Virus genome (UHGV): UHGV-0123532
DNA: 19,427 bases
Reading direction: 5' to 3' (one strand)
From: a virus
Positions 6,093 to 19,377 of this stretch are shown piece by piece (the stretch's first letter is position 1; each line of letters begins with the position of its first letter). Below the pieces are notes generated by a model. The model was not told where the DNA came from, did no database searches, and was given only the letters and a program-made list of their open reading frames with translations. The position numbers and the translations under genes are program-made.

Positions 6093-7844
6093 ATGATTCA
6101 GGACGCTTTTGTGCGCCAGCGTGCGCGGCAACTTTACTGGCAGGGTTATCCGCCCGCAGAAATATCACGTCTGATGGGAATAAACCCGAACACGATTTAT
6201 GCGTGGAAAAAACGCGACCAGTGGGATGAAACGCCACCCGTGCAGCGTGTCACGCAGTCCATCGATGCGCGCCTCATCCAGCTTACTGAAAAACAGAATA
6301 AAACAGGCGGTGACTTTAAGGAAATTGACCTGCTGACCCGGCAGCTTAAAAAAATGCATGATGGCCAGCCGGATGCGACGGCCACAGGAAAGAAAGGCCG
6401 GGCGAAAAAACTCAAAAATCATTTCACGCCGGAACAGATTGCCGCACTGCGGGAAAAAATCATCAGCAGGCTGGAGTGGCATCAGCGGGGCTGGTTTGAC
6501 TCCCTGACCCTTTGCAGGGAAGCCGGGATACGTAACAGGATGATCCTGAAATCCCGACAGATTGGCGCGACCTGGTATTTTGCACAGGAAGCACTGCTGA
6601 TGGCGCTGCGTGACGATGTGGCGCAACCTTACCAGCGTAACCAGATTTTTTTGTCTGCGTCGCGTCGTCAGGCGTTCCAGTTTAAAAGCATTATTCAGAA
6701 GGCTGCGGCTGAAGTTGATGTGGAGCTGAAAGGGGGCGATAAAATCATCCTCTCCAACGGCGCAGAGCTGCATTTTCTCGGCACTTCTGCTGCGTCGGCG
6801 CAGTCCTATACGGGCAATTTTTATTTTGATGAATTTTTCTGGGTCAGTCGCTTTGCTGAACTGCGCAAGGTGGCTGGCGCTATGGCAACCCTCAGCGGAT
6901 TGCGGCGCACCTACTTCTCCACGCCATCCACCGAAACGCACGAAGCATACGCCTACTGGAACGGCGACCGCTGGAACGAGAAAAAGGCCACACATAAACG
7001 CCAGCGTTTTTCTGTGGACTGGAAAACACTGCATAACGGGCTTATCTGCCCTGACCGGACGTGGCGGCAAATTGTCACGCTGGAAGATGTGGTTAATCAC
7101 GGCTGGAAACACACCGATATCGACGAAATTCGTGATGAAAACACCGAAGACGAGTTCCTCAATCTCTATATGTGTGAGTTTGTCCGCGAAGGGGAATCGG
7201 CATTTAACCTGAATATCCTGATTGGCTGCGGTGTTGACGGATACGACGACTGGAAAGACTGGAAACCTTTTGCTCCCCGCCCGATGGGGAATCGTCCGGT
7301 ATGGATTGGGTATGACGCAAACGGCAGCAGTGGCAACGGCGACAGCGGCGCTGTGTCCGTGGTGGTTCCTCCGGCTGTTCCTGGTGGCCGTTTTCGAACG
7401 GTGGAGACGCGACGCGTTCAGGGGCTGGAGTTTGAAGAACAGGCCAGAGTCATTGAAGATTTCACGTATCGCTACAACGTGGAACACATCGGCATTGATG
7501 TGACGGGCGGGAACGGGGAGGCTGTTTATCAGATAGTGAAACGGTTTTTCCCTGCCGCTATTCCGTACACCTTCACGCTGTCATCAAAACGGTCGCTTGT
7601 ACTGAAAATGCTGCAAATAATGCGTGCCGGGCGGTGGGAATACGATCGCGCCGAACGCGAGCTGGTCGCGGCCTTTAACGCCGTGCGTAAGGTGAAAACA
7701 CCGGGCGGCTTTATCACTTACGAAACGGACCGCGCGAGGGGGATCAGCCACGGCGACCTTGCGTGGGCAACCATGCTTGCTGTCATTAACGAACCAATTG
7801 GCGGCGAAGGAGAAAACGAGCGTTTCACGGTTATGGAGTTCTGA
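6093..7844 (+). CDS. P: terminase large (ATPase) subunit, gpP-like
   Basis: 583-aa ORF, length and position match P2 gpP; stop overlaps the Q start (TGATG at 7842-7846). Confidence 0.85.
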   Translation: MIQDAFVRQRARQLYWQGYPPAEISRLMGINPNTIYAWKKRDQWDETPPVQRVTQSIDARLIQLTEKQNKTGGDFKEIDLLTRQLKKMHDGQPDATATGKKGRAKKLKNHFTPEQIAALREKIISRLEWHQRGWFDSLTLCREAGIRNRMILKSRQIGATWYFAQEALLMALRDDVAQPYQRNQIFLSASRRQAFQFKSIIQKAAAEVDVELKGGDKIILSNGAELHFLGTSAASAQSYTGNFYFDEFFWVSRFAELRKVAGAMATLSGLRRTYFSTPSTETHEAYAYWNGDRWNEKKATHKRQRFSVDWKTLHNGLICPDRTWRQIVTLEDVVNHGWKHTDIDEIRDENTEDEFLNLYMCEFVREGESAFNLNILIGCGVDGYDDWKDWKPFAPRPMGNRPVWIGYDANGSSGNGDSGAVSVVVPPAVPGGRFRTVETRRVQGLEFEEQARVIEDFTYRYNVEHIGIDVTGGNGEAVYQIVKRFFPAAIPYTFTLSSKRSLVLKMLQIMRAGRWEYDRAERELVAAFNAVRKVKTPGGFITYETDRARGISHGDLAWATMLAVINEPIGGEGENERFTVMEF

Positions 7845-8890
7845 TGAGCAGAAAAAATAAAAAAGTGCGCATGAGTTCACGCATTGATCTCGCTGATGCA
7901 CTCAGGAAAGAATCGTCGCTCAGTGCATTCACTTTTGATGGTCCTTATCGCCTGACCGGGCATGATTTGCTGGACAATATGTACTGTGCTGATAACGGGC
8001 GGTGGTATGAAACCCCGGTGGACTGGTACGGTCTGGCAAGAGCCGCCCGGCAAACGTCCTGGCATCAGTCTGCGCTTTACTTTAAGCGCAATGTATTGCT
8101 CGGTTGCTACATCCCGCACCCGCTGCTTTCCCGGCAGGATTTCTCGGCACTGGCGCTGGACTGGTTTGTGTTCGGTAACGCATTCCTTGAGCTTCGAAGC
8201 AATATGCTCGGCGAACCGCTTAAATTACGGCACGCCCTGGCGAAATACATACGACGCGGAAGCGATCTTGAATCATGGTGGTATGTGCAGGATGGCAAGG
8301 ATGCGTTCCAGTTTCGCCCTGGCAAAGTGTGCCACCTGATGAATCCTGACATTAACCAGGAAATCTACGGCATGCCGGAATATCTCGGCGCATTACTCTC
8401 GGCCAGCCTGTCTCATTCGGCGGACATGTTCAGAAAACTGTATTACGACAACGGATCCCACGCCGGGTGCATCATCTACATCGGTGCAGCGCAGGTAAAC
8501 CGCGAAAGCATGGACTCTCTGAAAGAAACGCTACAGGGTGCACGTGGTGGCGGTGCGTTTAAAAACGTGCTCATTCATGCGCCCAACGGGGGCAAAGAGG
8601 GGGTGCAAATTTTGCCGTTCCAGCAGATCACCGCAAAGGATGAGTTCATGAATGTTAAGGCGGCATCCCGTGATGATGTGCTGGCTGCGCACCGCGTTCC
8701 GCCGCAACTAATGGGGGCGATGCCGGGTGAAAAAAGTGCGTTTGGTGATGTGGAGAAGGCCGCGCGGGTTTACGCAATTAACGAGCTGATGCCCATCATG
8801 GAGGCCATGAAGCACATCAATGACTGGCTTGGCGAAGAGGTGATCCGCTTTAACCCTTACGCACTGTTAGATACCCAGCTCACATCCTGA
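7844..8890 (+). CDS. Q: portal (capsid vertex) protein, gpQ-like
   Basis: 348-aa ORF translationally coupled to P; length and position match P2 gpQ. Confidence 0.85.
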   Translation: MSRKNKKVRMSSRIDLADALRKESSLSAFTFDGPYRLTGHDLLDNMYCADNGRWYETPVDWYGLARAARQTSWHQSALYFKRNVLLGCYIPHPLLSRQDFSALALDWFVFGNAFLELRSNMLGEPLKLRHALAKYIRRGSDLESWWYVQDGKDAFQFRPGKVCHLMNPDINQEIYGMPEYLGALLSASLSHSADMFRKLYYDNGSHAGCIIYIGAAQVNRESMDSLKETLQGARGGGAFKNVLIHAPNGGKEGVQILPFQQITAKDEFMNVKAASRDDVLAAHRVPPQLMGAMPGEKSAFGDVEKAARVYAINELMPIMEAMKHINDWLGEEVIRFNPYALLDTQLTS

Positions 8891-9581: not shown

Positions 9582-11279
9582 TTATTTATCCTCTTTAATG
9601 ATTTTGTTATAGTCAAAATCCCAAATTTTTCTGTCAATGCCGTTTGTTGGTGTAACCCGGTAGAATAAGGATCGTAATCCATTGTAAAAATACTGGAGAG
9701 ATTTCTGATTTTCTGGTTTGTCTAACCAGTTTCTTGTAATCATTCTAAAGAATTCAATATGCTGATTGAATATTTTCTTATTTAATTTTCTTCTTAAACC
9801 GGATGTAGACTCATGGTTGTCTTTTCTTTTCTGAATTTCAGTTTCAATTGATTGTAATTGAGGACGTATCTTGAGTAAGTATAACTCTTTCGAAAAACCA
9901 TTGTTAATTATATCCTGATTTTCCCAGAAGGAAGAGTCGTCGGTATTATAAAGGTGCTCACAATGCTCAAATATCAATTGTTCTGGAGCTTTTTCACCCG
10001 GCAGTGATATAATTCCTCTCTGATCCTCAGGGCTGTGATCTCCATCAAGAATACAAATTGATTTTAACGAGGTTTCCTTAAGATGAGAATCATTAAAAAT
10101 AGTTTTTAAATTGTCTGCACCAATGAAACAATCAATTAAGTGAAATGAATTACTAACTATAGCAAAATTTGGATATTTGCTTATCCAATAACCAAGTATT
10201 TCATTAAATAAAAAGCGAGCTTCTTCATCTTCCGTGAAAACTGGTATCTTGTTCCTTGTGTATATCTCATCCTTTGTTTGTGTTTTCAGATACATTGTTA
10301 TTTTTAATATATCAGGATTATCCAAAAGCAGAGCCTTTGTAATATTGTTAATTAGATAGACAACATGGTATTTTTTATGAAAAGCATATTCTAGCAATGT
10401 CAGACTGTGCGTTGTGAAAAATACTTGAATCTTATAATCTTTTGCGTATTGATAAATTTTATCTAATAATCTTATCTGTAAAGAAGGATGTAAAGTGGCA
10501 TCAAATTCATCTATTAACAGAATGCTTTCTTTTTGATCAGTGGATTGAATAAGTGATTCAAAATAATACCTAAGGCTAACTAATGCCTTGATTATAATGA
10601 ATATATTGTCTTCCCCGGATGATATGGTATTAGAATCAATTGCTGGGTTATCGGTATCAAATAATGGGCCAGCTTTAAAATCTCCGATATTGTTTGATTC
10701 TATATTTATAATATTAATGCCCAAAAGTTCATTATATATTTTCGATATATAACCAACATACTCTTCTGGTAGGTTTAACGGAATTTTTGTAAGGGCGTCG
10801 TCTTTAGTTTCACCAATTGGGAATAGTCGCGATAATCCAAGATATAAAACTGGTTTAGCTGGAAGTGATTGTTTTTCTTTTCCGCGTGGGTATACTGGTT
10901 TGATAGCATACCGTTGCGCTTCGTCTGGATTTTTTGAGTTGTGCTTTCTGAAGTCTAGTGTGCTATGATCCAAATAGTTAATAGAAAATAACACACCTTT
11001 TGTTCCCTCTGCCGGATCGGTGTAATTTTTTGATTCCCTAACAATTGCTTCCATTTTGGGGTTGGCTATTTTGTTTATAGATTTTATAACTCTAACACAA
11101 TTACTATTTGAATAATTTTGTGATCGAGATGGTGGCATTTGGAAACCATTGCTAATTAAATGAAGCAATGTTGTCTTACATGTCCCATTGGTTCCTGATA
11201 TTATATTGATGTCTTCATTGAATGAGAAGTCAATATCTATCAGTTTCTTAAATTTTTTAAAACTAATTTCTTTAATCAT
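9582..11279 (-). CDS. OLD-family ABC-type ATPase with C-terminal Toprim-like nuclease region (565 aa)
   Basis: N-terminal P-loop SGTNGTCKTTLL; Walker B/D-loop LLIDEFDATLHP and H-loop FFTTHS typical of AAA_15/AAA_21 OLD-like ATPases; downstream conserved acidic motifs VFTEDEE and ILDGDHS spaced like the Toprim Glu and DxD; AGGA RBS; AT-rich. Confidence 0.6.
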   Translation of the reverse strand: MIKEISFKKFKKLIDIDFSFNEDINIISGTNGTCKTTLLHLISNGFQMPPSRSQNYSNSNCVRVIKSINKIANPKMEAIVRESKNYTDPAEGTKGVLFSINYLDHSTLDFRKHNSKNPDEAQRYAIKPVYPRGKEKQSLPAKPVLYLGLSRLFPIGETKDDALTKIPLNLPEEYVGYISKIYNELLGINIINIESNNIGDFKAGPLFDTDNPAIDSNTISSGEDNIFIIIKALVSLRYYFESLIQSTDQKESILLIDEFDATLHPSLQIRLLDKIYQYAKDYKIQVFFTTHSLTLLEYAFHKKYHVVYLINNITKALLLDNPDILKITMYLKTQTKDEIYTRNKIPVFTEDEEARFLFNEILGYWISKYPNFAIVSNSFHLIDCFIGADNLKTIFNDSHLKETSLKSICILDGDHSPEDQRGIISLPGEKAPEQLIFEHCEHLYNTDDSSFWENQDIINNGFSKELYLLKIRPQLQSIETEIQKRKDNHESTSGLRRKLNKKIFNQHIEFFRMITRNWLDKPENQKSLQYFYNGLRSLFYRVTPTNGIDRKIWDFDYNKIIKEDK

Positions 11280-11296
11280 CTATATCATCCTTAAAT

Positions 11297-12142
11297 TTAA
11301 ATGTCAGGGATTTTTATACCATGATTATAAATGATAATTTCTAGACCTTTTTTCTTATCTTGTGCAGTATAATTAAGCGTATAATCAGTCATATTGAATT
11401 CATGATATATGCTTTTTATTTCAGGCACATTGTCATAAGACACAACCCAAGGTAGTTGAATTTCCCGTAGTGTATTAGCGATTTTTACATGATCATCATG
11501 TTTATAAAAATTTCTATATAACTCTGCTCCTTTAACATAATAAGGTGGATCAAGATATATTAGACTATTTTGGGGTAGCAATGCTTTTTGGTGTAGCAGA
11601 AAATCTACAGCATCAAAATTCGATACGTAAATTTTCTCCTTATATGCACCAATTAGTTCAATCCTTTTAATTAACTCTTTTTTGTTGAATCTTGCATCTA
11701 ACTTCCATGGTCCTTTTTGTTCTTTCCCTCCAATAACGCCAGCCTTAAGTATTCCTGAACGGTTTGTTCTATTTAAAAAGAAAGTAGATAATGCGACTTC
11801 AAGCATACTATATTTATCATTGTTTAGGAGTATCTCCTTTTGAGTATGCCAATTTTCAATAGTCACAGGAACTTCATCAATCATTTCACATAACAGATCG
11901 TTATGATTAACCACTGCAAACCAAAAAGAATAAAGGGCAGGATCAATATCATTTATGAAGATATTTTCAACAAGACCGTTAAGGAGCAAACCTAATGCTA
12001 CACCGGCTCCACCTGCATAAGGTTCAGCATAACATCCACCAATGAGATCATTGTTGCGGAGTATTTGTTCAATATGTGGCAAGAATTTTGCCTTACCTCC
12101 CGGATAACGAAGAGGGGTTCTAAAATGAGAAGGCTTTGTCAT
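11297..12142 (-). CDS. Dam-like (D12 class) N6-adenine DNA methyltransferase (281 aa)
   Basis: LRYPGGK N-terminal motif, AdoMet motif EPYAGGAGV, catalytic DPPY; stop lies 17 bp upstream of the ATPase start, same strand. Confidence 0.85.
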   Translation of the reverse strand: MTKPSHFRTPLRYPGGKAKFLPHIEQILRNNDLIGGCYAEPYAGGAGVALGLLLNGLVENIFINDIDPALYSFWFAVVNHNDLLCEMIDEVPVTIENWHTQKEILLNNDKYSMLEVALSTFFLNRTNRSGILKAGVIGGKEQKGPWKLDARFNKKELIKRIELIGAYKEKIYVSNFDAVDFLLHQKALLPQNSLIYLDPPYYVKGAELYRNFYKHDDHVKIANTLREIQLPWVVSYDNVPEIKSIYHEFNMTDYTLNYTAQDKKKGLEIIIYNHGIKIPDI

Positions 12143-12327: not shown

Positions 12328-15153
12328 TCATCCCTCATGATGGAAAAGGCATATCCAACTTTGTAATTGTTTTTTCTCATCATCATTTTGATTACTAAAG
12401 TGCTGTTTGCCTCTCTTTTGGAGCAAAGTAGCCTTGCGGCGGGCGCGTTCAGTGGTTTCATTGATTCTTTGTGCGTGCTCTGCGTCACGGATGGCGCGCA
12501 GCATGTCAGAAAGCACGGTAACGGGGGTTTTCATGGTGTTCTGGTCCTGCTGAAGTGTGGATGCCAGACGTGCGGCGGCTTCGGGGTCTGATGCCCCCAG
12601 TTGTTCCAGATAGCTGGCGACCGGGTTATGACGGATCTCTGTGCTGCTTACGCCGTGATTACGGCTCAGGCGCTGCCAGAGCTGCGTAATTCGGCTGGCC
12701 GGGCGGGTATCCGGTTTGCGTACAATTTCAAATCCCTGCGGTGCAATGATGCTGCCGTCAACGTACAGGCTGCCGCCCCGTAACAGGTGCTGCATCTGCT
12801 GTTCACCGATATGCAGGCCGAGAGATTCGGCAGATTCCCGCCATTCTTTAGCGAGTAATTCGTGGTTATCAGGCAAAGGCCGCTGCTGTTTGCGGCTCTG
12901 TGTCCAGCTCTGCATTTCATCACTGCTGTTTTTTGCCTGTTTGTCACGAAGCGAACGCATCAGCGCCCGGCGTTCGTGCCGTTTCAGTGAGCGCATCCAT
13001 TCGTTCACTTCAACGCCGTCAGGAAGCTGCGGCCACGGTGCTGGCCGTTCTTTCGACTGTTCTGTCCCGCTGTTGCCTGTTTCCTGTACACGGGGACAGT
13101 TATTGCCACGAGTCCAAGGGGCGGCAGGGCCGCCCTGAAGGTCAAAACCATTTTCGCGGGCGCTGTCTTCCGCTTCCGGTTTGCGTCTTACCAGCTTCCA
13201 GTTATCCGGATGCGTGCACACACGGGAGGATTCCCCGATGAGTGGTGACCAGATCCCGTAAATCTGTACGCTCTGTTCGCCGTAATCGTTCAGCTCATCG
13301 GCGAGGTCGTAGGCGGTGCGAATCAGGTAGTCTTTGCGTGGAACAAGTACGCCGCCCTGTTTCTCAATGTAGGTGGCAAAACATCCGGCATCAGCGGCAG
13401 CAAGAACCGCATCCATTGCGTCATCCTTCAGCCGTTGCGGGCCTTCCGGGTTGCGTGCCATCTGGCTGGCAAGGCGACGCAGTTCACGCCACACCTGACG
13501 GGAGGGGATGCCAAAGAACTGGAACTGGCGGACCCGGTGAAGGCGCGCCCAGCCAATGGCGCGTTCCACGCTCTCGGTCATTGATTTTCCGGTTTCGTGG
13601 TCAACGCGTGGTTTGCCTGTTTTCGGGTCGATGCCATCCACGGCGCGGCTGTCCAGGTTTTTTCCGATGTAGGTGGCGATGTAGCTGGTTGGCGTGCCTT
13701 TTGAGCCGTCGACATACTCCGCCTTAAAGCGCGGAGTAATATCATCGCCCAGCTCGTGACGATCTTCCTGAATGGCAATATCGCGGGTGTGGGACACAAT
13801 GGTGTCGATTTCTTCCGGATGAGCAAAGACCATCATATGCCAGTGCACGGTGCCGTCATGGTGAGGCTCCACCGTGCGGATGCCATACCAGCGCAGGCCG
13901 TCGCGGTTCAGTTTCTTGCGGACCGCCGCAAAAAACGTGTTAACCAGGTAATCGCTGGAGTCGCGCATGGTGGCCCCGTTCCATTTGGGATTCGGATGAC
14001 CGTTCTCTGTTGTAGCGTGGTATTTTGACGGGCAGGTGACAGTCAGAAACACCGCTTTGTCGCCACGGGCTTCGGCCAGAAGTTCCAGCCCCTTCATGGT
14101 GGCCATCATTTCTGCCTTACGGTGAACCGGGTTACTTACTCCCGCGTAATACACTGTCTCGAGATCAATCGTGAACCCGTCTTCGTTTTCCAGCATGAAA
14201 CTTTTCAGGAAATCGCGTGTTTTCTCGCGCTGTGCGCGAAACTCGCTTAACGCGTCCTGGCTCAGATAGGGCGATGTTTTTCTGGAAACCAGACAGGCGG
14301 CGCGGAGTTGTTCTTCTCTCCACTCGCAACGTAACAGCCACAGTTTGCGTTTCCACCATTCCGCACAGGTCAGGCGAAGGATTGCGCCCGGCAGCAGCTC
14401 CGTGTCCGGTTCGTTCCTCCGGTCTTTGTCTGTTGTCAGTGCGTCATAATGTGGAGGCATGGCGTGCAGGTGTAACGCCATGCGGGCCAGCATCTGATAC
14501 GCCTTCAGCGTTACATCCATGGTCAGTTCGCCATCGGTCGCGCCAAAGCCATCGCAGAGTTTTTCGAAGGTGCTGCTGAACATCGCCGCCGTCATGGTGG
14601 CCAGCGTCTGTATCTGGTGTTTGTTGAGCTGCGGCAGGTAAAGCAAATCGTCCAGGCGTTCGCGTCCGGCAAGGGAGCGATAACCCTGTGTCAGCCAGCG
14701 GTGATCGGTGCGCTCCAGACGTTCGAATATTTTGCGCAGGTTTCCGCGCGCGTAGCGTTCAGCCTGCCAGCTCTTTTTGCCTTTCTGACGATCGGCTTCC
14801 TGTTTTTTGCGCAGGAAGGAGAGGTGGCGAATAAGCGGATCGCGCAGATAGGACGGCAGCAGGCGCAGCGAGGCCATGGCTTCATCCACCGCACCGCGTG
14901 CCTGTTTTCTGGCGTCTCCTGCCAGTGTGATGGTTTTGTCCTGTTTTTCCTGTGCGTCCAGGCTTTTATTAATCAGGTTGCCCAGCGGCGTTGCGGAGAA
15001 CGCCGCATCAGCCATTTCCTGGCGGCGCTCGTTCTCTACCCGGTAGGCATCCAGCCAGGAGGAAAGCGCGGATTCAGGAGCGGGGATCCCCGTTCCTTCA
15101 CGCCCCACTGCGTGGCGCGGTTGTTGCCAGTCCCTGATGTACTCTGCCGTCAT
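12328..15153 (-). CDS. A: replication initiation endonuclease, gpA-like (rolling-circle HUH type), 941 aa
   Basis: HUH-type motif TVHWHMMVF and paired tyrosines YIATYIGK characteristic of P2 A-family proteins; position after the early operon. Confidence 0.85.
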   Translation of the reverse strand: MTAEYIRDWQQPRHAVGREGTGIPAPESALSSWLDAYRVENERRQEMADAAFSATPLGNLINKSLDAQEKQDKTITLAGDARKQARGAVDEAMASLRLLPSYLRDPLIRHLSFLRKKQEADRQKGKKSWQAERYARGNLRKIFERLERTDHRWLTQGYRSLAGRERLDDLLYLPQLNKHQIQTLATMTAAMFSSTFEKLCDGFGATDGELTMDVTLKAYQMLARMALHLHAMPPHYDALTTDKDRRNEPDTELLPGAILRLTCAEWWKRKLWLLRCEWREEQLRAACLVSRKTSPYLSQDALSEFRAQREKTRDFLKSFMLENEDGFTIDLETVYYAGVSNPVHRKAEMMATMKGLELLAEARGDKAVFLTVTCPSKYHATTENGHPNPKWNGATMRDSSDYLVNTFFAAVRKKLNRDGLRWYGIRTVEPHHDGTVHWHMMVFAHPEEIDTIVSHTRDIAIQEDRHELGDDITPRFKAEYVDGSKGTPTSYIATYIGKNLDSRAVDGIDPKTGKPRVDHETGKSMTESVERAIGWARLHRVRQFQFFGIPSRQVWRELRRLASQMARNPEGPQRLKDDAMDAVLAAADAGCFATYIEKQGGVLVPRKDYLIRTAYDLADELNDYGEQSVQIYGIWSPLIGESSRVCTHPDNWKLVRRKPEAEDSARENGFDLQGGPAAPWTRGNNCPRVQETGNSGTEQSKERPAPWPQLPDGVEVNEWMRSLKRHERRALMRSLRDKQAKNSSDEMQSWTQSRKQQRPLPDNHELLAKEWRESAESLGLHIGEQQMQHLLRGGSLYVDGSIIAPQGFEIVRKPDTRPASRITQLWQRLSRNHGVSSTEIRHNPVASYLEQLGASDPEAAARLASTLQQDQNTMKTPVTVLSDMLRAIRDAEHAQRINETTERARRKATLLQKRGKQHFSNQNDDEKKQLQSWICLFHHEG

Positions 15154-15159
15154 AGTGAT

Positions 15160-15525
15160 TTACTTCGTCATGCCATTCAGGGTGTCGCGGCAGGCTGTAG
15201 CCAGCCGCTGAATTTCCAGCACGGTGTCTTCTGTGTCGGCATGGCGATGTGTGATGCGGATGCTGTCGGCAATCACATCGACGATTGCAGAGGATGGGCG
15301 CTGGTAAATGCCAATAACGGACGGGGTGCCACCTTCAATGCGGTAAAGCCTGTAATTTCCCTCGTGGCTGTCAATCATGTAGCGACCATCAATAACAATC
15401 TTTCCGTCAGCGAGCTGCGGTACAGGCAGGGATTTCTGGTACATGTCATAACGATCACGCACGCGAGCGGCAAGATCACGTTCTGTGTTGAGCAGGTATT
15501 CAAGAAAGTCGTTGGCGAGAATCAT
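15160..15525 (-). CDS. hypothetical early-operon protein (121 aa)
   Basis: ORF with AAGAGGA RBS; stop 6 nt before the gene A start. Confidence 0.55.
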   Translation of the reverse strand: MILANDFLEYLLNTERDLAARVRDRYDMYQKSLPVPQLADGKIVIDGRYMIDSHEGNYRLYRIEGGTPSVIGIYQRPSSAIVDVIADSIRITHRHADTEDTVLEIQRLATACRDTLNGMTK

Positions 15526-15597
15526 TGCGGCAATCCTCTTGTTACAGATGTGCGAAGGCCTCCCGCCGCAAGGTGCAGGAAAGGCCCGGAACAGGAA

Positions 15598-15828
15598 TTA
15601 ATGGAGTTTGTTTTGCTGCTGGATGAGCTGTTGAAGCTCGTGCAGATCATCCGCCAGATAGCTGAAAACAGAGGCGGAATAAATGTTTGATAGTGCGTGG
15701 CTGCGCTCATGCAGCATATTGATGTGCATGATTTGCGCGACGCGTGATGCGCGGGAAAGTCTGCGGTTGATTTCAGTCTGGATGTGACGACGCTCCGCGA
15801 TAGCGCGGTGTGGTTTGCGGTTTGCCAT
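15598..15828 (-). CDS. hypothetical early-operon protein (76 aa)
   Basis: ORF with AAGGGG RBS embedded in the 3' arm of an upstream stem. Confidence 0.5.
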   Translation of the reverse strand: MANRKPHRAIAERRHIQTEINRRLSRASRVAQIMHINMLHERSHALSNIYSASVFSYLADDLHELQQLIQQQNKLH

Positions 15829-15838
15829 GGTGTGGCCC

Positions 15839-16059
15839 CTTGTGTAGTAAGTTGTGAAAACTCACCATCCAGAGCTGCGAAACTGTGGGTGGCGAGACGT
15901 ACGAGGTTCGCAGTACCGGCTACACAAGAACCCGGCCCGACCGAAGTCGGCCCCGTACGCCCCGCCATAATTCTGACGCGAAAAAAACGTGGCAATACAG
16001 TACGCACAAAAAAACCGCTGGCGCGGTTGTGCGCTTGTGTAGTCAGCAGGCTGCGAAAC
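15839..16059. repeat. three copies of a bipartite motif CTTGTGTAG ... CTGCGAA(A)C in alternating orientation
   Basis: Forward copies at 15839-15847/15875-15883 and 16034-16042/16051-16059; reverse-complement copy at 15906-15913/15920-15928; all seen directly. Confidence 0.6.
16003..16028 (-). terminator. intrinsic-terminator-like hairpin plus U-tract on the minus strand inside the early operon
   Basis: Minus-strand RNA AACCGC-GCCA-GCGGUU followed by a U-run (plus-strand A-run 16008-16014). Confidence 0.4.
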
Positions 16060-16150
16060 CCGACACCCGTTTTGTGAGGTGCAGCGGAAATGTAACCTGA
16101 CTGATTGCGGCATGGCAAGCGGTTTTTTTGTGTGTGCATGTTCTGGTTTC

Positions 16151-16450
16151 TTACTGGTTCAGAAAAAAATCAAAAACCTTGTCAATGCGTTGCAGCAGCT
16201 CTTGCTGTATTGCTTCCGGTGTTTCCGGTTCGCCTGGCGCCTTCAACGTCGCGCAGAAATCAGCGATTTCATGATGGAGCGTCAGGCGAATGGCAGGAGC
16301 CGTGGTTCTGGCGTGCTCCAGCTCATCCAGCAGTGCCAGCACGGCAGACGGCGAGAGCATTGCGCGAAATGCCAGTAATTTTTGAGGCGTTGCCATTCGT
16401 TGCAGGGCAAATGCCAGTTCGCGTAGCTTCTGGTGGTTGATGGTGCTCAT
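16151..16450 (-). CDS. hypothetical early-operon protein (99 aa)
   Basis: ORF from track; start overlaps the upstream gene stop by 4 nt. Confidence 0.5.
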   Translation of the reverse strand: MSTINHQKLRELAFALQRMATPQKLLAFRAMLSPSAVLALLDELEHARTTAPAIRLTLHHEIADFCATLKAPGEPETPEAIQQELLQRIDKVFDFFLNQ

Positions 16451-16713
16451 GTTCTGGCTTCCTTCAGTAGCTGGTTAAACATGTGAGTAAGTGGATTGCT
16501 ACACCCGAACGGCATCGGGTTTACGTGGTAAGAAGCCTGGCCTCCAGTTTTGCGAGCGCGACCACCTGTGCTGCGGTTTGTTCTGATGACTAAGCCGCTG
16601 CGCCAAAGTCGGCGTAACTCAGCATTAATAGCTGTGGTTGGGGTGTTCAGTGCTGCGGCGATTTCTCCGCCGCTACAACCCGGATGTGTAGTGATGTAGT
16701 CCAGAATGGTCAT
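16447..16713 (-). CDS. putative winged-helix DNA-binding protein (88 aa)
   Basis: ILDYI...GCSGGEIAAAL...LRRLWRSGLV resembles winged-HTH recognition regions; 4-nt overlaps with both neighbours. Confidence 0.45.
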   Translation of the reverse strand: MTILDYITTHPGCSGGEIAAALNTPTTAINAELRRLWRSGLVIRTNRSTGGRARKTGGQASYHVNPMPFGCSNPLTHMFNQLLKEART

Positions 16714-18470: not shown

Positions 18471-18674
18471 TTAGCTGTTAGCCAAAGCGTCTTTTAACAT
18501 CGCCACAAGGTTTACTTCAGGCTTTTCCATTTTGGCGCGTTTGGGGCGGATAATAATTCGACCGTCAGCCAACATCTTTTTGCATGTATTAAGAGGGATA
18601 CCTGTTATCTCTGCATATTTCTGCAGGGATACATAGGGGGCATTCACATTGATATTGATGGTTATACCTGACAT
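18471..18674 (-). CDS. cox: Cox-like small HTH protein (putative excisionase/switch regulator)
   Basis: APYVSLQKYAEITGIPLNTCKKMLADGRI resembles the P2 Cox N-terminal region (AIPYQEFAKLIGKSTGAVRRMIDKGKL) as remembered; early-operon position. Confidence 0.5.
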   Translation of the reverse strand: MSGITININVNAPYVSLQKYAEITGIPLNTCKKMLADGRIIIRPKRAKMEKPEVNLVAMLKDALANS

Positions 18675-18690
18675 CCCACTAGCCTCCTGA

Positions 18691-18897
18691 TCAGGAAGAT
18701 TTGTTTTGTTCTTTCTGGGTTAGCTCTAGGCCGCGAAGGAAGATCATGCGCGCCATGTTAGAGGATGAGCGTTGTTCTTTAGCTGCCATTTCATCAATGA
18801 CGGCTCGCTCCTCGAGGGACAGCCGAAGTGCCAGTCTTGGACCTGTGGCGGTGTTACGCGGAATGCGTGATCTGGTATCGTGAAGAACTTGTTTCAT
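18691..18897 (-). CDS. ribbon-helix-helix-like small regulator, first gene of the early operon
   Basis: PRLALRLSLEERAVIDEMAAKE is an Arc/CopG-like RHH signature; no strong RBS. Confidence 0.45.
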   Translation of the reverse strand: MKQVLHDTRSRIPRNTATGPRLALRLSLEERAVIDEMAAKEQRSSSNMARMIFLRGLELTQKEQNKSS

Positions 18898-18934
18898 AGT
18901 GGTATATTGTGATCATCTAATAGCTCGTGAAATC

Positions 18935-18963
18935 ATTTTGGTATCAAAAAAGATACCTGTCAA
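18935..18963 (-). promoter_or_regulatory. early (lytic) promoter with operator palindrome in the spacer
   Basis: Minus strand TTGACA (18958-18963) - 17 nt - CAAAAT (18935-18940); the spacer is the inverted repeat GGTATC-AAAAAA-GATACC (18940-18957). Confidence 0.5.
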
Positions 18964-18972
18964 GGTTTTTGT

Positions 18973-19377
18973 ATGAAAAATGATATTGGTCAGCGGTTGC
19001 GTGAGGAAAGGGAAAGATTGGGACTTAGTCAAGTTGCCATGAGCGACATTGGTGGAGTCAAAAAGCTAACTCAGCTTAGATATGAGAAAGGAGATAGCTT
19101 TCCTGATGCTGCGTATTTGGCAGCGCTGTCTCGTTTTGGCCTTGATGTTCAGTATGTTGTGTTGGGAATTCACTCACCTGAAACTTATAACGATGATGAG
19201 CAGGAGTTGATTACTCGCTTTCGAGCAGCTTCGTTAGATGTGAAAAACGCGGTGATTGGGGCTTTAAAAGGTGCGATCAGTGAAAAGGAAACTCAGCCAT
19301 CAGGACGTGAGTTAAATATTTCTGGTGGTAAAAACCGTATCGCTGGTCGTGACTATAACGAAACTAAGGGTAGGTGA
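18973..19377 (+). CDS. XRE-family HTH transcriptional repressor (immunity repressor, C-like)
   Basis: N-terminal HTH QRLREERERLGLSQVAMSD; transcribed divergently from the early operon. Confidence 0.7.
   Translation: MKNDIGQRLREERERLGLSQVAMSDIGGVKKLTQLRYEKGDSFPDAAYLAALSRFGLDVQYVVLGIHSPETYNDDEQELITRFRAASLDVKNAVIGALKGAISEKETQPSGRELNISGGKNRIAGRDYNETKGR

Follow-up and report, generated by a model that had tools for sequence, protein, structure and literature searches.

What occupies positions 15,830–16,150 between two early genes of the virus genome UHGV-0123532? The window analysed here is the whole stretch of 19,427 nt, and in this segment a sequence-only reading had found three copies of a bipartite motif and no convincing ORF, and had proposed an attenuator or riboregulator or, alternatively, an iteron-like protein-binding array. 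The results of our analysis showed that the segment is very probably an antisense-RNA immunity cassette of the P1 immI / P4 type, in an E. coli prophage of the P88-like kind (Xuanwuvirus, P2-like). The cassette is real and looks functional, and its mechanism has already been defined by P1, P7, P4 and Gifsy-1, so that it is not new in itself.

Two adjacent RNA families on the minus strand

Two adjacent Rfam matches were found on the minus strand, the isrK leader at 16082–16008 and then C4 at 15972–15885, and P4 and P88 both gave the same two matches in the same order. The leader scored 61.9 bits with RF01394 (gathering score 50; model positions 1–77 of 77), and the second RNA scored 83.2 bits with RF01695 (gathering score 45; model positions 1–87 of 87; E = 2e-15). 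The Rfam C4 and isrK profiles have been reported to detect relatives of CI and seqA (PMC10111431), and both "c4 antisense RNA" and "c4-a1b1" are among the entries of PMC2864571. The idea of a riboregulator held in the main, whereas the notion of an unclassified attenuator fell, since both RNAs belong to curated families. The predicted 336-nt minus-strand RNA was folded as had been proposed, and its fold was more stable than those of shuffled sequences (z = −4.4). Read along the minus strand, the cassette and the genes behind it comprise the following features.

16139–15522, minus strand: eta-like frame, 205 codons (ORF list)
16118–16089, minus strand: predicted internal sigma-70 promoter, −35 TTGCCA at 16118–16113, 18-nt spacer, −10 TACATT at 16094–16089 (promoter scan)
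16082–16008, minus strand: isrK / c4-a1b1 / P4 SeqA-type leader RNA, with a1/b1 (Rfam RF01394)
16028–16008, minus strand: intrinsic terminator, AACCGC-GCCA-GCGGUU followed by U7 (terminator scan, independent of Rfam)
15972–15885, minus strand: c4/CI-type antisense RNA (Rfam RF01695)
15882–15836, minus strand: downstream target a2/b2 (repeats and covariation with a′/b′)
15828–15598, minus strand: epsilon-like gene, 76 aa, of the P4 epsilon ("derepression protein") family, predicted to be the first controlled gene
15525–15160, minus strand: 121-aa gene, with its own Shine-Dalgarno (SD) sequence AAGAGGA and an ATGA overlap with the eta-like frame
15153–12328, minus strand: replication initiator gene A, 941 aa (Pfam Phage_GPA, E = 4.5e-131), the last gene downstream of the cassette, transcribed in the same direction

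Homology to P88 begins at about 16132, and the boundaries of the cassette are sharp and mosaic.

In the Rfam alignment, the start predicted by the promoter scan (about 16082) falls on position 1 of the isrK model, and the leader is predicted to be a primary transcript from its own sigma-70 promoter. Among 15 distinct P88-like cassettes, the first four bases of the −35 element (T-T-G-C) and all six bases of the −10 element were invariant, and the last two −35 bases were conserved in at least 90%; the spacer was divergent in sequence in L039, L093 and L112, with its length unchanged. A run of seven A residues at 16129–16123, corresponding to −47 to −41 of the predicted promoter, may represent the proximal subsite of an UP element, judging from its position. 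This promoter is the counterpart of PLE in P4, of P1c4 (P51b) in P1 and of PisrK in Gifsy-1. A second promoter-like site at 15995–15967 was dismissed as a chance match; its −35 element varies (TTGCCA, TCGCCA, TCGTCA) and its −10 element is the 5′ flank of c4.

The three bipartite motifs are the classical a1/b1, a′/b′ and a2/b2 sites of the P1 immI and P4 immunity regions. On the plus strand, CTTGTGTAG is located at 15839–15847 and 16034–16042, with its reverse complement at 15920–15928, and GCTGCGAAAC is located at 15874–15883 and 16050–16059, with the complementary GGTTCGCAG at 15904–15913, so that two forward copies and one reverse-complement copy were confirmed. These three exact 9-mers within 210 nt are the sole exact copies in the 19.4-kb window, where about 0.15 exact copies per 9-mer would be expected on both strands (an arithmetic estimate rather than one from shuffles). 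When up to one mismatch was allowed, five matches were found against 2.84 expected from shuffles, which were run for this search only, and no further c4 target sites above chance were found in the rest of the window.

In the RNA, the 5′ part of the leader forms two hairpins, with a1, UUUCGCAGC (16058–16050), within the loop of hairpin 2 and b1, CUACACAAG (16042–16034), in the linker; the terminator at 16028–16008 is the hairpin with a U-tract that the sequence-only reading had noticed. According to the model-structure alignment, c4 consists of a long closing stem around two hairpins. The first of these (stem at about 15951–15934) is capped by UUCG (15945–15942), as had also been seen. The element b′, CUUGUGUAG (15928–15920), lies within the 12-nt loop of hairpin 2, and a′, CUGCGAA (15913–15907), within the 3′ junction, both at the positions that they occupy in P1 c4. 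The processing-site signature of c4, with the 5′ flank GAAUUAU/GG (the slash marks the RNA end) and the 3′ end GCCACC, agrees in every base with the ends of P1 c4 as annotated (77 nt). By analogy with P1, a mature RNA of 79 nt (GGCGGGG...GCCACC) is predicted at about 15966–15888.

Downstream, a2, UUUCGCAGC, occupies 15882–15874 and b2, CUACACAAG, occupies 15847–15839, separated by a small spacer hairpin (about 15865–15847) that is present in the alifold consensus. The b2 element runs into the SD sequence AAGGGG (15841–15836) of the epsilon-like gene, the last minus-strand copy being CUACACAAGGGG, 7 nt 5′ of the AUG at 15828, which bears out the suggestion that the downstream pairing covers the ribosome-binding site (RBS) of the 76-aa gene. 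Across 50 distinct cassettes, the loop-pairing site adjoins GGAGG, GGGG or AGAGG, with the ATG usually 6–12 nt further on. As isolated segments, the loop and b2 gave a duplex of −20.4 kcal/mol, compared with −9.0 ± 2.7 kcal/mol for shuffles, and only 1 of 500 shuffles was as low. Co-folding of the whole c4 with its targets (RNAcofold, duplexfold) did not reproduce the loop–target pairings; this outcome is uninformative, because both methods exclude pseudoknots and hence any pairing of a hairpin loop with a second molecule.

Covariation of the pairing sites among relatives

The set for covariation analysis comprised the 15 distinct P88-like cassettes, with a mean identity of 88%. The variation was concentrated in the six a/b patches, and the internal helices of c4 were 100% paired in these relatives, the intramolecular helices being almost invariant. 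The a′b′ elements were paired with a2b2 at 97.1%, with both sides changed in 11 of the 16 pairs and a score of 0.694, compared with 0.134 for shuffled data (reached in 0 of 500 shuffles) and at most 0.226 for slid controls. The a′b′ elements were likewise paired with a1b1 at 98.8%, with both sides changed in 12 of the 16 pairs and a score of 0.717 versus 0.141. Some covarying pairs were in G-U wobble states, so that complementarity is kept as Watson-Crick plus G-U pairing. The covariation test that had been suggested was thus strongly positive, and the proposal that the repeats are RNA pairing elements whose middle copy can pair with either outer copy held for both partners. Since a1/b1 covary with a′/b′ as strongly as a2/b2 do, the pairing between leader and c4 is under selection as well.

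An alignment-free test of 54 distinct loops, mostly from c4 cassettes with a few chance pattern matches, gave a consistent picture: the mean exact complementary run between a loop or junction and its own flanks was 6.9–7.8 nt, and it fell to 4.9–5.2 nt (sd 0.13) when loops were swapped between loci. The same matching was observed in about 45 further specificities from viral contigs. In the 15 cassettes, 10 loop types and 7 junction types occurred in 13 combinations, which revealed that a and b reassort; the specificity of P88, for example, is CUGUAGUUG / GUGGAAA.

These data bear on two other explanations of the repeats. Three bipartite copies (9 plus 7–10 nt) in 210 bp near a replication gene would suit an iteron-like array bound by a replication initiator or a repressor, but one copy is inverted, the middle copy lies within a full-length Rfam C4 match, and P2-type origins lie within gene A. 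Moreover, the copies change jointly among relatives in a way that preserves RNA complementarity, including G-U pairs, rather than the DNA sequence, which would be meaningless for a DNA site; such an array is hardly credible and was rejected. The other explanation is a purely cis-acting transcription attenuator, in which alternative hairpins set termination against read-through in the absence of any diffusible RNA, with the middle copy pairing with the upstream or the downstream copy, or with 16135–16115 pairing with 16022–16002 as an antiterminator. It draws on the intrinsic terminator located directly 3′ of a1/b1 and on a 21-nt, 90% complementary inverted repeat between the sequence upstream of the promoter and the 3′ half of the terminator, which appears in the minimum-free-energy fold. 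This repeat, however, is invariant in the P88-like group and hence uninformative there, its place is taken by a T-run or unrelated sequence in other subfamilies, and its A-run lies where an UP element would be expected. In addition, a′/b′ lie in the loop and junction of a stable tRNA-like fold, as in the trans-acting P1 c4. An attenuator of this kind is accordingly improbable. The antiterminator role of 16135–16115 / 16022–16002 was not adopted, as the pair showed no covariation in the P88-like group and is absent or different elsewhere.

A long open frame across the cassette and the genes behind it

The segment had been taken to lack a convincing ORF, and this view could not be upheld: a 205-aa frame (16139–15522) crosses it and is conserved in relatives. 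Given this conserved frame and the internal promoter, the segment is not simply an ORF-free spacer. The ATG at 16139 precedes the internal promoter and is located 11 nt past the stop codon of the 99-aa gene upstream; from there the frame reads across the leader with its terminator, c4 and a2/b2 and also across the entire epsilon-like gene, which is read in another frame, and its stop codon overlaps the start of the 121-aa gene as ATGA (15525–15522). From this overlap, translational coupling of the 121-aa gene to the eta-like frame is predicted. The same ATGA arrangement was seen with four different sequences at the start of the downstream gene, and in L039, L093 and L115 the frame is fused to the upstream gene.

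The frame was open in 36 of 44 distinct cassettes. Between 110 nt upstream of c4 and 150 nt past the c4 start, 34 stop triplets were counted in the eta-like frame, compared with 117 and 163 in the other two frames, and inside the 12-nt loops the corresponding counts were 1 versus 15 and 12. A weak match to Pfam Phage_ASH, just under the threshold, covered aa 16–109, which is exactly the RNA cassette. In P4, the equivalent frame is ORF 8812..8168, which matches Phage_ASH with 82 bits, also over the RNA cassette. An NCBIfam search with the 205-aa ORF gave no match and BLASTP of its product against P4 Eta gave no similarity; with Phage_ASH below threshold, a conserved protein was rejected. It is the openness and coupling of the frame that are conserved rather than the peptide, and only the openness looks selected. 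In all P88-like cassettes the start of the epsilon-like gene (here the ATG at 15828) lies out of the eta-like frame, whereas in the P4-like cassettes the first translated gene is nested in frame.

The 76-aa protein belongs to Pfam PF25738 (32.5 bits against a gathering score of 27), is 29% identical to P4 epsilon (BLASTP, E = 4e-9), matches phrog_3688 (E = 1e-46) and is labelled "derepression protein" in P88 and in PV468777. The epsilon-like protein is 96–99% identical between phages with unrelated immunity repressors, which casts doubt on its acting as an anti-repressor for the phage that encodes it. The repressor encoded in the window itself has 134 aa. The 121-aa protein belongs to phrog_3237 (E = 1e-54), a family to which no function is assigned, and it showed no similarity to P4 ORF151.

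Comparison with P1, P4 and Gifsy-1

The immI region of P1 and P7, reportedly described by Citron and Schuster in 1990, encodes the c4 antisense RNA with its a1/b1 and a2/b2 sites and the genes icd and ant. In P1 (GenBank NC_005856), promoter, a1, b1, the 77-nt c4, a2, b2, icd and ant follow one another in the same order and on the same strand relative to each other as the elements described here. The likeness extends to the position of a2 directly 3′ of c4, to b2 adjoining the SD sequence of the first gene and to identical flanks of the mature RNA (GAAUUAU/GG ... GCCACC), and the relatives differ in specificity, as P1 and P7 do. The first gene, in contrast, is here the P4-epsilon-like 76-aa gene, while P1 has icd and then ant1/ant2. 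A long eta-like frame is present here, whereas in NC_005856 the interval from the c4 promoter to icd has no annotated CDS, a comparison at the level of annotation only. The present phage is a P2-like integrating myovirus and P1 is a plasmid prophage. Unlike in P1, the promoter here is not known to have a C1-type operator.

The region of P4 comprises PLE, seqA, the CI RNA (seqB), seqC, the nested eta and kil, and then epsilon. As here, a long ORF runs from upstream of the internal promoter through both RNAs, its end overlaps the start of the next gene, and a gene of the epsilon family lies downstream. P4 differs in that kil, in frame with eta, comes first after seqC and is followed by epsilon, whereas here the epsilon-like gene is first and out of frame and the eta-like ORF is coupled to the 121-aa gene. 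Further downstream, P4 carries the alpha primase and the present phage a P2-type gpA, and leader and c4 are 35 nt apart here, compared with about 108 nt in P4. The P2-like setting and the nesting of the epsilon-like gene out of frame in the eta-like frame are what distinguishes the cassette from P4 and P1.

The isrK-orf45-anrP region of Gifsy-1 (Salmonella) resembles the cassette in that a leader of the isrK family, ending in a terminator, precedes a stable c4-like RNA; this RNA is crossed by a translated frame, and an anti-repressor-like gene is present as well. Its authors have stated its homology to SeqA and CI of P4, with IsrK as the structural homologue of SeqA and STnc1160 as CI-like (PMC4825925). 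The Gifsy-1 region differs in its lambdoid setting, in that AnrP leads to AntQ expression and in that the short leader is an activator there, for which Hfq binding and trans-activation of the read-through mRNA have been reported (PMC4825925).

Positive control of this kind is conceivable for the present phage too, though we regard it as considerably less probable than not. The leader (16082–16008) would then act in trans on the extended read-through mRNA by pairing with the c4 region or its targets, open the RBS and switch on the anti-repressor-like gene, with c4 serving mainly in cis as an inactive fold of the mRNA. This proposal does not exclude the main reading, from which it differs in the effector RNA and in the sign of regulation. 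The leader is a full-length member of the isrK family, its a1/b1 elements covary with a′/b′ as strongly as a2/b2, and its Gifsy-1 counterpart, the short IsrK, is a translational activator of the read-through mRNA, with the stable c4-like STnc1160 located downstream (PMC4825925). However, both flanks of mature P1 c4 are shared, which argues for a processed, trans-acting c4; P4, with the same two Rfam matches, uses CI as the repressor; and the minimum-free-energy fold of the whole transcript has c4 folded on itself rather than paired with the leader.

Proposed mechanism of the cassette

In P1 and P4, the middle element is a processed, trans-acting antisense RNA and thus more than one arm of an alternative cis hairpin. 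All dynamic steps proposed below for the present phage follow by homology from P1, P7, P4 and Gifsy-1. The internal promoter would be constitutive in the lysogen, where the majority of its transcripts would end at the leader terminator, and RNase P would process the read-through transcripts at GAAUUAU/GG to give the stable RNA of about 79 nt. By pairing in trans with a2/b2, as described for P1 c4 (PMC12197685), this RNA would prevent the epsilon-like gene from being translated, and Rho-dependent polarity would extend the block to the 121-aa gene and gene A. Pairing with a1/b1 of the nascent leader may occur as well, which would reinforce termination and autoregulate the RNA. The a and b sequences would define immunity specificity, which would differ from one related phage to another.

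In the lytic cycle, ribosomes would cross the cassette along the eta-like frame on transcripts from the upstream early promoter, their translation being coupled to that of the upstream gene. For P4, where eta, kil, CI and seqA have been described, termination is prevented when eta is translated from the upstream promoter, and this relieves the RNA-dependent premature termination at t_imm (PMC10111431). As with P4 eta, translation of the eta-like frame should prevent both terminator formation and antisense pairing, and the ATGA overlap would pass ribosomes to the 121-aa gene, so that early transcripts would be insensitive to immunity.

Distribution and meaning of the cassette

Roughly a fifth of complete E. 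coli genomes contain the cassette (1153 of 5426 at 80% identity or more); the copy in E. coli AR_0013 is 100% identical, and those in O25b:H4 strains are 99.1% identical. In RefSeq and GenBank records the cassette is either unannotated or goes under the names "ash family protein", "hypothetical protein" or "transcriptional regulator". It seems most unlikely to us that it is a dead remnant, left by a P4-like satellite or by recombination with such an element, and has no present function. Its closest characterised relative is indeed the satellite P4, and its boundaries are sharp and mosaic, with P88 homology from about 16132; against this stand its frequency in E. coli, the compensatory changes seen between close relatives, and the intact state of the promoter, the terminator, the RNA helices, the SD overlap and the open frame.

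The main value of recognizing the antisense-RNA cassette lies in annotation, since the cassette encodes, besides the two curated RNAs, a promoter and a terminator as well as an eta-like override frame. Its recognition explains the silencing of anti-repressor-like and replication genes behind an internal constitutive promoter in P88-like prophages, and it predicts RNA-defined heteroimmunity groups among otherwise near-identical prophages. Based on the reassortment of a and b, the conservation of the epsilon-like protein and the out-of-frame embedding of its gene in the eta-like frame, we tentatively suggest that the cassette might be a second, RNA-based layer of immunity in P88-like phages, which licenses gene A and the epsilon-like factor independently of the protein repressor. 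The epsilon-like gene and the eta-like "override" frame would then be alternative translation routes chosen by the promoter, and the epsilon-like protein may target other P2-type prophages, satellites or a host factor rather than its own repressor. Helper-type phages and their P4-like satellites have the cassette in common, which would imply an exchange of immunity modules between them, and possibly cross-talk.

RNA family identity and layout of the segment

The whole window was scanned against Rfam at gathering thresholds. Exactly two matches were obtained, both full length, on the minus strand and within the segment at 15830-16150. In the P1 nomenclature, a1/b1 are the upstream targets, a'/b' the recognition elements of c4, and a2/b2 the downstream targets.

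Elements of the RNA cassette
16082..16008, minus strand: isrK (RF01394), 61.9 bits against a gathering score of 50
16058-16050, minus strand: a1, UUUCGCAGC
16042-16034, minus strand: b1, CUACACAAG
15972..15885, minus strand: C4 antisense RNA (RF01695), 83.2 bits against a gathering score of 45
15928-15920, minus strand: b', CUUGUGUAG
15913-15907, minus strand: a', CUGCGAA
15882-15874, minus strand: a2, UUUCGCAGC
15847-15839, minus strand: b2, CUACACAAG

All sequence features described in the sequence-only reading were found where it had placed them. Its three-copy bipartite motif comprises CTTGTGTAG on the plus strand at 15839-15847 and 16034-16042 (reverse complement at 15920-15928) and GCTGCGAAAC at 15874-15883 and 16050-16059 (complementary GGTTCGCAG at 15904-15913), with no further exact copies elsewhere in the 19.4 kb. 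The terminator-like hairpin with U7 lies at 16028-16008 and the stem closed by UUCG at about 15951-15934; the minus-strand RNA of the segment folds more stably than shuffled sequences (z = -4.4).

The same two Rfam matches occur in the same order in P88 and in P4, where they fall on the CI RNA (8507..8420) and on the PLE leader with seqA (8692..8615). The corresponding layout is annotated in the P1 GenBank record: promoter P1c4, a1, b1, the 77-nt c4 RNA, a2, b2, icd and ant1/ant2. In P1, the loop of hairpin 2 carries b', which pairs with the 3' target beside the Shine-Dalgarno (SD) sequence, and the 3' junction carries a', whose partner is the 5' target. Since the mature-RNA ends (GAAUUAU/GG... 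and ...GCCACC) are common to the window and P1, the c4 RNA of the window is predicted to be ~79 nt long (15966-15888). Both the 'c4 antisense RNA' and the 'c4-a1b1' motif are in the list of Weinberg et al. 2010 (PMC2864571). IsrK was described as a structural homologue of P4 SeqA, and a CI-like stable RNA, STnc1160, is located downstream of IsrK (Hershko-Shalev et al., 2016; PMC4825925). CI and seqA relatives are detectable by the Rfam C4 and isrK profiles (PMC10111431). The segment belongs to this family in both profile and architecture; the kind of element is fully known, and this instance is recognised by curated models.

Promoter, cassette boundary and ribosome-binding site

A sigma-70 promoter-like site (TTGCCA-18-TACATT) was located at 16118..16089, and the start that it implies, 16082, coincides with the first position of the isrK model. 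All 15 distinct P88-like cassettes compared keep the hexamers unchanged or almost so, the spacer having diverged in sequence in three at constant length, and other subfamilies have well-placed hexamers of their own; promoter and terminator are both conserved. Homology to P88 begins at the cassette start (~16133) although the upstream gene differs, so the cassette behaves like a mosaic unit equipped with a promoter of its own. Another promoter-like sequence, TTGCCA-17-AATTAT (window 15967-15995, minus strand), begins just ahead of the c4 5' end and overlaps it; this match is probably due to chance, because its -35 hexamer is unconserved in relatives.

A 21-nt inverted repeat (16115-16135 / 16002-16022, 90% complementary), present in the minimum-free-energy fold, links the region immediately preceding the internal promoter with the 3' half and U-tract of the leader terminator, and the A7 run of the repeat is located where an UP element would be. 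Neither a purely cis-acting attenuator nor this long repeat (16135-16115 / 16022-16002) has comparative support, the repeat being invariant in the P88-like group and absent from other subfamilies.

At the other end of the cassette, b2 overlaps the SD sequence AAGGGG (15841-15836) that precedes the AUG at 15828, so pairing at b2 occludes it. Across 50 distinct cassettes, the loop-pairing site always abuts GGAGG, GGGG or AGAGG, with ATG usually 6-12 nt further on. The a2 and b2 sites are brought close to each other by a small conserved hairpin that lies between them.

Covariation of targets and recognition elements

We took 120 loci from viral contigs using a search pattern in which the c4 scaffold was fixed and the loop left free. 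One viral contig, L075, has two c4-scaffold matches (7051-7082 and 7920-7951) on the same strand, 870 nt apart, possibly representing two tandem cassettes. An alignment-free test was performed on 54 distinct loops with full flanks, mostly from c4 cassettes with a few chance pattern matches. When each loop or junction was compared with its own flanks at fixed upstream and downstream offsets, the longest exact complementary runs averaged 7.0, 7.8, 6.9 and 6.9 nt, against 4.9-5.2 nt (sd 0.13; maximum 5.6 in 200 permutations) when loops were swapped between loci.

The second test used an alignment of the 15 P88-like cassettes (358 columns, mean identity 88%), in which most of the variation lies in six patches that coincide exactly with a1, b1, b', a', a2 and b2. 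Pairing of a'b' with a2b2 was found in 97.1% of cells, with both sides changed in 11 of 16 pairs and a covariation score of 0.694, compared with 0.134 after shuffling (reached in 0 of 500 shuffles) and 0.226 for the highest slid control. For a'b' with a1b1, 98.8% of cells were paired, both sides had changed in 12 of 16 pairs, and the score was 0.717 (shuffled 0.141, 0/500; highest slid control 0.196). The sequence-only reading had proposed that the motif copies pair, and the covariation analysis that it had called for bore this out: targets and recognition elements change jointly. An iteron array, the other reading of the repeats, is contradicted by the inversion of one copy and by changes among relatives that preserve complementarity.

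The intramolecular helices of leader, terminator and c4 are nearly invariant and keep their pairing (c4 helices 100% paired, two pairs changed on both sides). As these helices hardly vary while the contacts co-vary, the intermolecular contacts are the fast-evolving, co-evolving part. The specificity elements also reassort, with 10 loop types and 7 junction types in 13 combinations among the 15 cassettes; one and the same loop (b') is combined with differing junctions (a') across L016, L031, L056, L074 and other cassettes of the alignment. L016 is a natural hybrid whose a1 (UUCUCAC) is mismatched to its own a', with a2 still matching. That the cassette is a dead relic is unlikely, given intact copies in 1153 of 5426 E. 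coli genomes.

A conserved eta-like frame across the cassette

The segment had been described as lacking a convincing ORF; this did not hold, as a 205-codon frame (16139..15522, eta-like) traverses it. Its weak match to Pfam Phage_ASH (aa 16-109; 25 bits, gathering score 26) covers exactly the RNA cassette (window 15813-16094). The equivalent P4 frame (8812..8168), which is P4 eta, starts ahead of PLE and passes through both seqA and CI; it shares its frame with kil (MATTLTPSH...) and matches Phage_ASH with 82 bits over nt 8704-8329. In P4, the constitutive promoter is internal to eta, and full-length Eta arises from the upstream late promoter alone, in coupling with the preceding gene, its translation preventing termination (PMC10111431).

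In 36 of 44 distinct cassettes, the frame in fixed c4 register stays open over a stretch that reaches 110 nt or more upstream of c4 and 150 nt or more beyond the c4 start. Over that interval it contains 34 stop triplets, versus 117 and 163 in the other two frames, and within the hypervariable 12-nt loops 1 versus 15 and 12. In the P88-like group, the eta-like ATG lies 8-11 nt past the stop of the upstream gene, whichever gene that is, except where the two are fused into one frame (L039, L093 and L115). The stop of the eta-like frame overlaps the next gene start as ATGA (window 15525-15522), which holds with four different downstream gene-start sequences; both the open frame and its coupling are conserved. 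The peptide sequence, by contrast, is not conserved: BLASTP revealed no similarity of the eta-like product to P4 Eta, and an NCBIfam search gave no match. Selection appears to act on translation across the cassette, not on the eta-like protein. Phage_ASH (PF10554) and the RefSeq/GenBank labels 'ash family protein' and 'similar to ash family protein' correspond to the isrK and C4 cassette translated in the eta frame, and this protein family largely mirrors RNA-level conservation.

Prophage setting and putatively controlled genes

The prophage to which the window belongs is P2-like, of the P88 / Xuanwuvirus group, and 15500-16500 is 97-99% identical to Escherichia phages vB_EcoM-569R5, P884B11 and PhiR44_2.

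Gene order around the cassette
18973..19377, plus strand: divergent HTH repressor gene, 134-aa product
18897..18691, minus strand: gene in the Cox position, 68-aa Arc-like protein
16450..16151, minus strand: 99-aa Ead/Ea22-like gene, one of several small early genes upstream of the segment
15828..15598, minus strand: 76-aa epsilon-like gene, after the segment
15525..15160, minus strand: 121-aa gene, after the 76-aa gene
15153..12328, minus strand: replication gene A, 941 aa (Phage_GPA, E = 4.5e-131)

The gap between the 121-aa gene and gene A is 6 nt. The 76-aa protein is a member of the P4 epsilon family ('derepression protein'; PF25738, 32.5 bits, gathering score 27) and is 29% identical to P4 epsilon (E = 4e-9), which is described as an anti-repressor with the P2 C repressor as its binding partner. 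The 76-aa protein is 99% identical in PV468777 (L001) and 96% in P88 (L002) (window 15598-15828 vs L001:5099-5329, L002:4099-4329), although the repressors (window 18973-19377, L001:9334-9675, L002:8160-8441) are barely related or unrelated, with at most a 37-aa HTH stretch in common; the epsilon-like protein thus does not co-vary with the repressor of its own phage. The switch/immunity region (window 18471-19377 vs L001 and L002) is mosaic, encoding the 134-aa HTH and 68-aa Arc-like proteins in the window, a 113-aa HTH and a Cox-family protein in PV468777, and a 93-aa C in P88, yet near-identity prevails in the early genes and in the RNA cassette.

A 281-aa D12 adenine methyltransferase (11297..12142, minus strand; 404 bits to PADLOC model PD-Lambda-5_B) adjoins a 565-aa AAA/OLD-like ATPase (9582..11279, minus strand; ~55-bit matches to PtuA, AriA, GajA and HEC-04), and the pair (9582-12142), situated between gene A and the portal/terminase genes, looks like anti-phage defence cargo.

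The cassette differs from those of P4 and P1 in its host, a helper-type phage that is P2-like and has gpA, and in the first gene behind the target, which is the epsilon-like one. Also unlike in P4 and P1, that gene is nested out of frame in an eta-like frame that is coupled to another gene. The literature searched, which covered little of the older phage work, yielded no account of such a cassette in P2-like phages.

Proposed regulatory mechanism

By analogy with P1, P7, P4 and Gifsy-1, the internal promoter would yield mostly the short leader in the lysogen, and read-through transcripts would be processed to stable c4. Pairing of c4 with a2/b2 would block translation of the epsilon-like gene and, through polarity, also make the 121-aa gene and gene A less strongly expressed. 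At a1/b1, pairing may feed back on termination, or it may be titrated by the leader. A role of the leader RNA as a Gifsy-1-type activator is compatible with these data, which do not separate it from the c4-centred model. In that c4-centred model, transcripts from the early promoter would escape by being translated: ribosomes on the eta-like frame would traverse terminator, c4 and targets before re-initiating at the 121-aa gene. The fast co-evolution of the intermolecular contacts is what would be expected of immunity specificity.
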